64,000 nt of DNA, from the NCBI RefSeq assembly GCF_006345805.1, contig NC_042997.1, positions 63,240,001 to 63,304,000 on the forward strand, read 5' to 3'. A model generated the notes under the pieces. That model was not told the DNA's origin, ran no database searches, and saw only the letters and a list, made by a program, of their open reading frames with translations. The DNA comes from Octopus sinensis. Lineage: Eukaryota. The position numbers and the translations under genes are program-made. Shown here piece after piece: positions 5,214 to 30,438 of the stretch (position 1 is the stretch's first letter; each line of letters starts with the position of its first letter).

Positions 5214-5418
5214 AAAATAAAGGAATTTTGTTAAATCTTCGTTCAGCTCCATTCTTTCCTATACTTAATATATTAAACTTCAATTTCCGCACTGAGGCAC
5301 GTATTTTATACCCTATGGTCGTTACTTCAACCGTGCTTTTTCTGTTGTGAGTTTGCTACCCAGGTATCGGTTATCTTTCGAATTATCCGTAATAAGATAA
5401 TTCATTTGTCTACTTAAA

Positions 5419-5469
<51 letters not shown>

Positions 5470-5940
5470 TTGTTGAAATAGAAAGATGAATTTTCTTGTT
5501 ACAGATTATTCAAAAGTTTAACCGATACCTGGGTAGCAAAAATCACAGCAGAAAATACACGGTTGGAGATAAGACCATTTGGTGTTGCAACCGTGCGTTG
5601 GTGCGGATAATTGAAGTTTAATATTATTATTGAATGGGAGAAATGGAGTTGAACGAAGATTGTACAGAATTCCTTTTATTACATTCTACACATGTTTCAA
5701 AAGCCACAAATTTCCAAATTCTGATTAAATAAGGGTACCATATTGTGGCTTTCTCATCAGGAAAAGACAGGAATTCCGTTGACAGAACAAAACAGAACAG
5801 AGGCGCAGCAATTCGAACGAGGAGGCTCTTTAAGAGCCCATGGCTGAACTGTTTATCAATGTACGCTGAAATCGGGGATTTGGTGAGTTGAAGATATCTA
5901 CAGGTCAGGCGGCGGTCAGTTCTAGTGGGTGAGAGCAAGG
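5470..5940 (-). mobile_element. Second, diverged PLE pLTR of the same family, tail-to-tail with the first across (TA)n
   Basis: 5470-5770 is a diverged reverse complement of about 5125-5420 (e.g. aaccgatacctgggtagcaaa vs tttgctacccaggtatcggtt). Confidence 0.85.
5682..5765 (-). ncRNA. Type I hammerhead ribozyme (complete)
   Basis: Minus strand: TTTTC CTGATGA GAAAGCCACAA...TTGTGGCTTTT GAAA CATGTG TA GAATG; 11-bp stem II, GUA triplet, stem I with one mismatch. Confidence 0.85.
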
Positions 5941-11596: not shown

Positions 11597-12256
11597 ATTA
11601 AAAATGAGGGTGTCTGAGAGACACCACCATGCCGGAATAGCAGTCGAAACTCTGACTATAAAAACCACGTTAAATGTTCATATCGTACCATGAGATAAGA
11701 CAGAGGGACAAAATAGACAAGCAAAAGTTATTGAATAATTCAAGATCCAGGATTTCTGGTTTTGCTTTAAATAAGCTTTACCGTCATCGGTTGAATATAT
11801 CAAGAGTACGTAAATACAGATATATATATATATATGCAGAACAGACGATATACTTACATATACGAACGTCCATACCTACATACATATGTACGTATGCACA
11901 CGGTCAGTTAAATTGCCCGCCAAAACACCCCATAAGCACGATATGGTTAAAATAAACACCGCAGTGAATATAATAACGAATTATATAAATTTATAAATGA
12001 GGATAATATCGATATTTAAATATCGATATTATCAAGTGGGAAAAAATACCGTACAAAGGTAATAATTTTTTACAATTAAAAATGAGGGTGTCTGGGGTGT
12101 TTTGGCGGGCAATTTAACTGGCCGTGTGCATACGTACATATGTATGTAGGTATGGACGTTCGTATATGTAAGTATATCGTTTGTTCTGCATATATATATA
12201 TCTGTATTTATGTACTCTTGATATATTCAACCGATGACGGTAAAGCTTATTTAAAG
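11597..12256. mobile_element. Double-headed inverted-repeat element (PLE pLTR-derived)
   Basis: Arms 11765-11932 and 12093-12256 nearly identical in inverted orientation; direct repeat aattaaaaatgagggtgtctg at about 11596 and 12074; (TA)n on the left. Confidence 0.8.
11738..11796 (-). ncRNA. Type I hammerhead ribozyme (CCGAUGA core variant)
   Basis: Minus strand: ATTCAA CCGATGA cGGTaaaGCTTatttaAAGCaaaACCa GAAA TCC-T-GGA TC TTGAAT; perfect 6-bp stem I, AUC triplet. Confidence 0.8.
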
Positions 12257-27529: not shown

Positions 27530-28960
27530 TCTATTCCCAAGATACACAAAAGTGACAAAATAAGTAATGAATGTAGGCCAGCCACAGACATAATAATAAA
27601 TTCCCTACTCCTACTGAATTGAAATTGAGGCCTATAATGGAGCTATCGCATGCGAAACCCGCTGCCTCAGTAGCTTTTTAAATAACCTCTGAAAACTACT
27701 GAAGCATGTGAAAAGCCACATAATGGACGACCTGGATATTCTCAATCACTTTCCTGAAACAATAAACAAAAGCACATTACTAGTATCCTTCGTTGTAGTC
27801 AACCTCTATTCCAATATCCCCCACAACCTAGGAATAGAGGCAATTCAATTCTGACTAGAGAATTAAGCCAACGAACTCCTACATCGCAACAAAAATAGGT
27901 CGTGATAGAAGAGCTAAACTTTAGCGTGGAGAATAACTACTTCGTCTTAAAAGATAACTTCTATCGACAAAATTCGGGGACTGCGATGTGTACGAGAATG
28001 GCACCCTCCTTTGCTAAATTAGTCGTTATCGTAAAGTTCCAGAAAAATATGGCAGACCATTCTTCTTCTACAAAGAACATAACTGGAAGAGATGCCTGGA
28101 TGACTGTTTCATTCTTTGGCATGAAAGTATAGAGACTTAAAGAATTTCAAGCACTTATAAATGGACTTCACATAAGGGTATATACTATAGTGTCTAATGC
28201 AAGCATCAGGGACACACGACTACATGAACTAAAGGCTACACTCATCACCAAGTACCTATCTTCACTAATTGACATATTCGTTCAACGTGCCCTACATCTC
28301 AACATCCATGAACTCAGAATCCCAAATTAAAGAAGGGTTTACAACCAAAAGCCCTACCATGTATCTCCACACACAACTCTCTTAACAATGAAACCTTCCA
28401 AAGCATCCTTTATAACATTTGCCCGCTCAAAAAGGACCACAGAATGAATTTAATCCTCCAAACACACACCGTCATAAAAAAACAGGACAGCCCAAATCTA
28501 TGAAAAGTCTCCTAACACAAGCCCGAATATTGTCAACACTGAAGCAGTCAGTAAAAACTTTGGTATATGTGTCAATTTAAATGAGGGATAAGAGTTCTCC
28601 TTCAAACATGGACAGCGTTTCACAGTGAAGAGCAGCTTCACATGTACTTCGGAGAACCTGATATACGCACTAGCCTGCTCTTTGTGTCAAGAGCAATACA
28701 TAAGCAAATTAAAAACAGCCTACGTCAAAGGATGGCTCTGCACAGATCCCAGATCAAAATTCTAAAAACAGAAAAATAACATTCAGCCAACACATCGACA
28801 TTTGCGCCAGCAACAAAAATCCAAGTTTCAGAATGTTTCCCCTCTATCGATTCAGGGACGATACAACCAGTAGCCAACGAATTAGTAAAGAGTGTCTCTT
28901 TATTACAAAATAGAGACACATCTACAACAAATGACATATCCACCACGACCTTAGAATTAT
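27530..28960 (+). mobile_element. Decayed Penelope-like element (Neptune-like RT + GIY-YIG)
   Basis: LRPI; LVSFVVVNLYSNIPH; ENNYF..FYRQNSGTAMCTRMAPSFAKL; WKRCLDDCFILW; FTCTSENLIYALACSLCQEQYI. Confidence 0.9.
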
Positions 28961-29132
28961 ACACACTCAAATATTAAAAACAAATACATTCCAAAGATAT
29001 ACCCTAGAATTCATTAAGATCAGTCCCAATCCCTGCTATAATCCACATCGAATCACTTTTAGGTCATTTGACCATTTAAAATTCTACTAATATCCTACCA
29101 TCCTGCATTCTTTTATTATTCTCGCTCTGTCT

Positions 29133-29787: not shown

Positions 29788-29825
<38 letters not shown>

Positions 29826-29828
<3 letters not shown>

Positions 29829-29962
29829 AAGTAGATAAATGAATTATCTTATTACGGATAATTCAAATGATAACCCATACCTGGGTAGCAAAAATCACAA
29901 CAGAAAAAGCACGGTTGAAGTTACGACCATGGGGCATAAAATCCGTGCCTTAGTGCGGAAAT
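29826..29962 (-). mobile_element. pLTR 3' end fragment (family of 5285-5420), copy 1
   Basis: Reverse complement of 5285-5420; embedded in (TA)n. Confidence 0.85.
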
Positions 29963-30079
29963 ATATATATATACACTTAATATATATATATGTATATATA
30001 TATGTAGGTCCCGGGTTGAGTCGGGGTTAACCACAGTAAATAAGGTACTCAATACATAGCAGAGTAAATTAATTTATTT

Positions 30080-30195
30080 TATAGAAGGAGCTTCTACAGG
30101 ACTAGAACTGTTTCATTCAAAAGAAATCATCAGGAAGCTTCCTGATGATTTCTTTTGAATGAAACAGTTCTAGTCCTGTAGAAGCTCCTTCTATA
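30080..30195. repeat. Perfect 116-bp palindrome centred on AAG|CTT (30137/30138)
   Basis: Base-by-base self reverse complement with no spacer. Confidence 0.95.
30136..30186 (+). ncRNA. Type I hammerhead ribozyme (identical copy on minus strand at 30089-30139)
   Basis: AGCTTC CTGATGA tTTC-tttt-GAAt GAAA CAG-ttctagtc-CTG TA GAAGCT; 6-bp stem I, 4-bp stem III, GUA cleavage after 30180. Confidence 0.85.
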
Positions 30196-30220
30196 GAATA
30201 TATGTATATATATATATATG

Positions 30221-30248
<28 letters not shown>

Positions 30249-30251
<3 letters not shown>

Positions 30252-30385
30252 AAGTAGATAAATGAATTATCTTATTATGGATAATTCAAATGATAACCGA
30301 TACCTGGGTAGCAAAAATCACAACAGAAAAAGCACGGTTGAAGTTACAACCATGGGGCATAAAATCCGTGCCTTAGTGCGGAAAT
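30249..30385 (-). mobile_element. pLTR 3' end fragment, copy 2 (direct duplicate of 29826-29962)
   Basis: 3 differences in 137 bp; same truncation point. Confidence 0.85.
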
Positions 30386-30398
30386 ATATATATATACA

Positions 30399-30438
<40 letters not shown>

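Follow-up and report, generated by a model that had tools for sequence, protein, structure and literature searches.

A palindromic pair of hammerhead motifs in Octopus sinensis and its likely origin as a minimal Penelope-like element insertion

In the genome of Octopus sinensis, two identical hammerhead motifs are joined head to head in a perfect palindrome that is a minimal insertion of a Penelope-like element (PLE), the smallest version of the known unit made of an inverted copy and a tail. In the reading that we consider likely, both ends of a cut (TA)n tract would have primed cDNA synthesis on uncleaved sense RNA, and the two cDNAs would have run off the capped 5′ end of that RNA and annealed through the word AGCT. 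The initial annotation had called the locus a snapshot of how inverted pLTRs form, and the other copies of the family bear this out, with inversion axes that cluster at stem I of the hammerhead.

The palindrome occupies positions 30080-30195 of the window (the whole stretch of 64,000 nucleotides that was analyzed). As first described, it has no spacer, with two 58-nt arms meeting at the axis 30137|30138, and it is the longest of three non-microsatellite perfect palindromes with arms of at least 9 nt in the 64-kb window, the other two having arms of 16 and 11 nt. A 32-bp perfect palindrome at 12002-12033 is unrelated to this element. Both strands do carry the same hammerhead, a 51-nt type I motif. 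Element positions are counted here with the A of AGCTTCC as +1, which places the hammerhead cut at +45|+46. The asymmetry first noted is also present: the left arm continues for 76 nt past the palindrome, about 90 nt past its cut site, to (TA)n at 30003, and the right arm stops just past the cleavage site, 15 nt beyond its own cut. The whole insert of 192 nt and its targets are composed as follows.

29961-30003, no strand: (TA)n-type target tract at site A
30004-30139, minus strand: tail arm (arm A), element +1 to +136, with the hammerhead, the AT-rich site B and the 76-nt tail
30004-30079, minus strand: one-sided 76-nt tail, found on one arm only; in full-length copies (L214, L219) it continues into the parent ORF, whose ATG is at +184
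30089-30139, minus strand: minus copy of the hammerhead, identical to the plus copy, cut between 30095 and 30094, as follows from the palindrome
30136-30139, no strand: AGCT, the self-complementary 4-nt junction common to both arms, where the two hammerheads overlap
30136-30186, plus strand: minimal type I hammerhead, GUA cut site at 30180|30181
30136-30195, plus strand: short arm (arm B), element +1 to +60, with the hammerhead and 15 nt more, ending at the AT-rich site B
30196-30249, no strand: (TA)n-type target tract at site B

The tail arm ends at site A (GGGACCTAC) against (TA)n, and we infer that AGCT at 30136-30139 represents the first four bases of the element RNA.

The palindrome is real, is not unique and is not an assembly artifact. 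Perfect palindromes are a known class of artifact, and this one was read from the assembly. However, a pattern search of the 2.7-Gb genome found the same axis at 252 loci, with ordered ends and with flanks that vary among the loci inspected, and the same turn is present in 11 records among the contigs of one sequencing run (X3), which may not be independent of the assembly. The arms differ in older copies and untemplated bases occur at junctions, all of which makes an assembly or library fold-back artifact exceedingly improbable.

The family is large, with 922 exact genome matches to 30 nt of the hammerhead motif and 1577 to 22 nt of the tail. Its features place the insertion, as judged from sequence, among the EN+ PLEs, in that an inverted, 5′-truncated arm lies next to the one-sided tail at 61 of 100 tail-anchored loci. 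Published EN+ PLE units share with it the head-to-head inverted copy, the junction palindrome, the tail on a single arm and the AT-rich target (Arkhipova et al. 2013, PMC3846280; Craig et al. 2021, PMC8557442; papers are cited here and below for what their accessible text contains). Unlike those units, the Octopus insert is only 192 nt long, its tail measures about 70-76 nt compared with 30-40, and its family favors one exact base at stem I for the junction, next to an extra base that is cap-like. Non-LTR retrozymes are defined by tandem head-to-tail units that each carry a hammerhead (bioRxiv 10.64898/2026.07.22.740005, accessible text), whereas this locus has a head-to-head pair and no tandem unit.

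The parent element has one ORF, encoding RT plus a C-terminal GIY-YIG domain, as seen by eye from the RT and LVY..YIG motifs of two proteins (P0003 and P0001). In L214 the order is pLTR, ORF, a 3.5-kb microsatellite-rich UTR and pLTR, at about 5.8 kb per tandem unit. Pfam recognized neither the RT nor the GIY-YIG domain in the parent proteins, and its one sub-threshold VtrA_C match was taken as chance. The motifs appear to be those of the Hydra clade of C-terminal-EN PLEs, for which Craig et al. (2021, PMC8557442) list, in the accessible text, RW(K/R), DKT, a CxCx5C linker, no CCHH, CxxC and CxH around E and N, a hammerhead and (TA)n targeting. The Octopus proteins have RWR in P0003, where R replaces K; SDKT in L212, a motif that an A-run disturbs in L214; CNCPDKTTC as the linker in P0003; and CDLC and CMH in P0001, where a single Cys lies between LVY and YIG and the C-terminal GIY-YIG lacks CCHH. 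The hammerhead and the (TA)n target are present as well. This clade placement is made by motifs. Hydra elements are generally smaller than 3 kb, which is no strict criterion, whereas the Octopus unit spans about 5.8 kb between pLTRs in L214 because of its long microsatellite-rich 3′ UTR.

This 3′ UTR, of 2.6-3.5 kb, consists largely of mixed microsatellites (L214:6000-9400, L049:600-3200) and is carried along in retrotransposed copies, and the PLE may in this way seed its own kind of target. A second PLE family in the genome, with 46-49% RT identity, has many open frames of 600-727 aa and is therefore probably young.

The hammerhead motif begins at +1 with a 6-bp stem I, followed by CUGAUGA, a 3-bp stem II, GAAA, a 4-bp stem III and the GUA cut site, and thus has the type I core (CUGANGA, GAAA, NUH) and stems I-III. 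It had been called a complete hammerhead, which is true of the core and the three stems, but the form is weak and minimal, since in 37 of 38 copies a U-U rather than the G10.1-C11.1 pair closes the 3-bp stem II. No hammerhead family of Rfam matched the palindrome motif, either at gathering thresholds or at E values up to 10, where only a generic hairpin and other unrelated families appeared, all under their own cut-offs. Minimal hammerheads of metazoan PLEs (Cervera and de la Pena 2014, PMC4209133) are similar, according to the accessible text, in having a type I core within the pLTR, an extra base before stem II and a quasi-palindromic loop III, but they have G10.1-C11.1. In Schistosoma, pairs of hammerheads on opposite strands lie 100-700 bp apart (PMC4209133), whereas the Octopus pair has zero spacing and an overlapping stem I.

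Despite its weak form, the motif looks selected in the sequence alignment, because variation per site among the 38 copies is concentrated at N7 (0.26) and loop II (0.18) and is at most 0.016 in the core and stems (rows L130, L142 and L156 were left out of these column counts, as also of the arm-concordance count and of the −1 base count at imperfect junctions given below). For one arm, the hammerhead fold has a predicted energy of −7.4 kcal/mol and the minimum free energy (MFE) fold −8.5 kcal/mol. In the MFE fold of the arm, an 8-bp hairpin at 30177-30195, across the hammerhead cut site, rivals stem I and may keep the RNA uncut.

To characterize the ends of the copies, we used the first 100 of the 1577 tail matches, each with 6 kb upstream and chosen blind to the junction. 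After removal of one false pair (L146) and two duplicates (L130 and L156), 61 junction loci with 122 inner arm ends were counted. Nearly all of the 100 tail-anchored loci terminate at site A, near +133 to +136, against (TA)n. At the other side, arm B ends at site B, between +61 and +72, in 59 of 61 junction loci, and short AT stretches that match (TA)n are present at either site. A search for target-site duplications found a shared non-simple stretch of at least 12 nt in both flanks at 6 of 59 junction loci, mostly microsatellite-like. Two fixed sites are also a feature of the Anolis element PAc (Poseidon), which in vitro cuts and extends both strands from two start sites that bracket the tail, with uncleaved RNA as the main template (Frangieh et al. 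2024, PMC11167929, accessible text). PAc belongs to a different clade and starts without homology, in contrast to the AT matches at the Octopus sites, and its accessible description treats neither the joining of the two cDNAs nor the start of the RNA.

The inner ends have a hard boundary at the first base of stem I. Among the 122, 42 lie at −1 or +1, 57 at +2 to +30 and 21 past +30, and two are upstream of −1. The clustering of inversion axes at stem I, which had been suggested as a check on the family, was thus found both genome-wide (the 252 loci) and in the sample, where 12 of the 100 tail-anchored loci have the exact axis. Hammerhead cleavage was rejected as the cause of this boundary, the cut being at +45 and the boundary at +1; no more than 2 of 122 ends lie near the cut, at +45 to +48, a count that also argues for an uncleaved template. 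Not every template starts at +1, since 25 of the 100 tail arms extend upstream of it, 18 by at least 95 nt and seven with ends at −95 to −2. A long transcript that includes the downstream pLTR would be expected to give such arms, and eight of the 18 far-upstream tail arms have an inverted short-end arm 238-4631 nt away.

Two further features fall in register with the boundary. The first is a TATA-like box: in 34 of 37 native copies, some of which come from overlapping loci, TATAAA or CATAAA stands at exactly −29, and does so across subfamilies with differing spacer sequence. The second is an extra G at −1, a base found there in none of the 37 native TATA-bearing copies, the one exception being a native-like copy that lacks the box (L116). 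Where six A/T bases precede the position (n = 68), the −1 base is G in 33 rows, T in 18, C in 14 and A in three, and in subfamilies with native T or A only it is G in 12 of 32. In a hand count of the first 100 of 135 matches with T at −2, there were 63 G, 24 C, 8 A and 5 T. A broader set, also counted by hand over the first 100 of 401 matches, gave 83 G and 17 C, many of these G's possibly being derived from the partner arm. The C rows can be explained by partner-arm sequence, as seen in the few such loci that were read. Among arms that reach +1 at imperfect junctions, 13 of 16 have G, mostly ambiguous because the partner arm could supply it. In loci picked from listings, the extra base is present on both arms (L056, L221, L222, L223) or on a lone arm, which is a short arm in L228-L230 and the tail arm in L227. 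Two contigs of run X16 extend beyond +1 with C and an A-run, a weak observation with an agreement of 0.55.

From the non-native G at −1, the hard boundary and the box at a fixed −29, we infer a capped Pol II start at +1, which would make the hammerhead the 5′ end of the transcript. Untemplated 5′ G has been read as cap copying for L1 and SVA (PMC4859970, PMC9341517, accessible text), and this mark and the TATA-like box at a fixed distance, the two sequence hallmarks of a capped start, are both found in the Octopus family. The D. virilis Penelope speaks against this start, in that its promoter is described as TATA-less and its intron as ending at helix I (PMC2377424 and PMC4209133, accessible text).

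That intron suggests a different origin of the boundary, in which the AG before CTTCC is a splice acceptor, cDNAs halt at the exon junction or switch there, and an upstream exon or leader supplies the extra (T)G. Native TAG, CAG or AAG does precede CTTCC after a pyrimidine-rich stretch, the D. virilis intron terminates at the 5′ end of helix I (PMC4209133), and two ends at +3 would fit a perfect palindrome. However, among 26 loci with G, the bases before it differ beyond 1-2 nt or are those of the partner arm, AG is retained in 401 matches with G or C in front of it, and the box keeps a fixed distance from +1. A first exon such as that of D. virilis, given as 46 nt (PMC2377424, accessible text), would be visible. 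Among the contig alignments listed for four sequencing runs, none showed a GT..AG joint across about 200 nt upstream of +1, a result that carries no weight either way. With no shared upstream exon, we rate splicing as very unlikely.

The relation between the two arms bears on whether one cDNA or two were made. Across the 61 loci the short arm reaches further toward the 5′ end in 25, the tail arm in 23, and both are equal in 13. Ten of the 61 pairs do not overlap, the tail arm ending near or before site B, which is the arrangement that twin priming on a single RNA would leave. In L049 the arm on the short end is 4.2 kb long and includes some of the ORF, against 0.6 kb for the tail arm. At subfamily sites the two arms are concordant in 26 of 27 loci, compared with a mean of 12.0 and a maximum of 21 in 10,000 shuffles; this fits one RNA copied twice but also fold-back or later homogenization.

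The initial annotation had explained the palindrome by fold-back of a single cDNA on AAGCTT. In its current form, this explanation would have a tail-primed cDNA stall at stem I, snap back on AGCT, copy itself to site B and join (TA)n, imperfect junctions being later deletions at the hairpin tip. The concordant arms agree with it, as do arm ends that almost never go past +1, and genuine products resembling stem I fold-back exist at 17 loci. In the ten of these that were inspected (L231-L240), one arm has the whole hammerhead and the other begins from the 3′ strand of that stem, as pairing on stem I would be expected to produce. However, this 7-bp pairing is open to the same cDNA, yet its products are about 15-fold rarer than the AGCT axis (17 loci versus 252), and loop-free AGCT cannot make a stable hairpin. 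The longer word AAGCTT is made by the inversion in the subfamily of the locus, because the parent reads TAGCTTCC and only AGCT is native there; in a sister subfamily AAGCTT is native.

The geometry of the arms also speaks against a single folded cDNA, given the symmetric 25:23 split, the ten non-overlapping pairs, lone short arms with their own extra base, and short arms that can exceed the tail arm by kilobases. Nor can deletion insert bases between two intact AGCT ends, as seen in L056 and L221-L223, and the box at −29 is left unexplained. We therefore consider fold-back rather unlikely.

Another published route starts from antisense RNA. Arkhipova et al. (2013, PMC3846280) propose, in the accessible text, that head-to-head palindromic junctions in rotifer PLEs come from self-priming on antisense RNA, which here would need a 3′ end at +1 and which would also yield concordant arms. 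This leaves unexplained the non-native C at the end, the sense-strand box at −29, the lone short arms and the non-overlapping arms, and none of the 33 rows with G shows before it the run of six T's that copied poly(A) would give. A sense template, by comparison, explains both outer-end sites (PMC11167929, accessible text). Antisense self-priming thus appears very improbable, and the Octopus data favor two cDNAs made on sense RNA.

Our model for two sense-templated cDNAs starts from what the copies display, namely the parent element, two fixed outer ends, a hard boundary at +1, the non-native G at −1 and the box at −29. Pol II would initiate at +1 and thereby put the hammerhead at the 5′ end of the RNA. 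The endonuclease would nick both strands within (TA)n, and one target end would prime at site A and the other at site B, aided by the short AT matches. Each reverse transcriptase would run to the cap, where it may append a C opposite the G of the cap, followed by an A. Should the site-A enzyme halt near site B, non-overlapping arms would result, as in L1 twin priming; alternatively, it could displace the first cDNA or use a sister RNA, and the arms would overlap. Pairing of two identical 3′ ends through AGCT, followed by fill-in repair, would yield the perfect palindrome, because identical ends can pair only through a self-complementary word. An added C would instead pair with a G in the partner to give the commonest imperfect junctions.

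Several details could arise in other ways. The 3′ strand of stem I continues with C, and a one-base extension on that strand could account for the extra C; blunt joining of two ends at +3 is another way to a perfect palindrome; and later deletion at palindrome centers could mimic both asymmetry and non-overlap. The locus at 30080-30195 cannot by itself separate the routes.

Most Octopus arm pairs overlap, whereas L1 inversions are not known to duplicate the same stretch. In other respects the proposed route resembles L1 twin priming, in which two target ends prime on the RNA to give an inversion and an untemplated G marks copies with the full 5′ end (PMC4859970, accessible text). L1 primes at its poly(A) tail and at a variable site, in contrast to the two fixed internal sites used here.

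It had also been suggested that a transcript from either direction would choose between a hairpin and the ribozyme fold. No such choice is real, since the read-through hairpin of 58 bp has a predicted energy of −98.1 kcal/mol against −7.4 kcal/mol for the hammerhead, and the insert lacks the upstream TATA-like box. We take the insert to be a promoterless, dead by-product rather than a switch, one that would form the hairpin if read through.

A double hammerhead selected as a functional unit, be it a bidirectional ribozyme, a hairpin switch or a small autonomous replicon, would account for two intact and identical motifs and for an axis common to 252 loci. Against such a unit stand the stability of the hairpin, about 90 kcal/mol greater than that of the hammerhead fold, and the insert's want of a promoter box. 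Palindromic copies are of several subfamily types, with both arms matching, and must therefore have come from the parent more than once. The majority of junctions are imperfect, and one or both hammerhead motifs are destroyed at many of them. We regard selection for the pair as highly improbable.

The insertion lies between two copies of a direct repeat.

29788-30006, plus strand: left copy of the 220-bp direct repeat, an end piece of another (TA)n-associated repeat family
30210-30428, plus strand: right copy, 96% identical and cut at the same base of that family

The copies show three differences in 137 nt. From sequence comparison, the repeat could be an unusually long target-site duplication produced by nicks in two (TA)n tracts, or it could be an older local duplication. 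A second (TA)n-associated repeat family (5283-5607; L241-L252) has 715 exact 23-nt genome matches, a fixed end against (TA)n and inverted pairs, with no hammerhead core near the fixed end in 12 loci. It behaves like another PLE end, possibly Naiad-like. Around 27900-29000 on the plus strand is a decayed piece of a different PLE, with a remnant at 28619-28708 containing Cys residues that we take to be GIY-YIG-like. The piece does not belong to the family of the palindrome, because tblastn of P0003 found nothing in the 64-kb window.

Inverted PLE units, junction palindromes and opposite-strand hammerheads are already in print, and both the formation of PLE inverted repeats and the role of the hammerhead are described as open questions in the accessible text of PMC8557442 and PMC3846280. 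A literature search covering titles, the beginnings of abstracts and parts of texts, with most subscription papers and supplements outside its scope, returned no report of a cap signature or of twin priming for PLE inversions, nor of a base-precise stem I boundary with a cap-like base and a fixed TATA-like box.

The locus itself is ordinary, and its worth lies in the evidence it opens on how PLE inversions form and on where in the transcript the hammerhead sits. Its family supplies hundreds of base-precise junctions, which favor two sense-templated cDNAs over antisense self-priming, and they predict the RNA start of a PLE to the base. If the start at +1 is true, the hammerhead cuts 45 nt behind the cap and so has a concrete job. 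More tentatively, and short of calling it likely, we suggest that the hammerhead might serve as a 5′-terminal self-decapping switch, in which a cut at +45 would uncap the ORF mRNA and uncut RNA would be translated and copied. One such RNA, copied twice from the two target ends, might account, in PLEs generally and without antisense self-priming, for pLTR inversion, for a tail on one side and for palindromes at the junctions.
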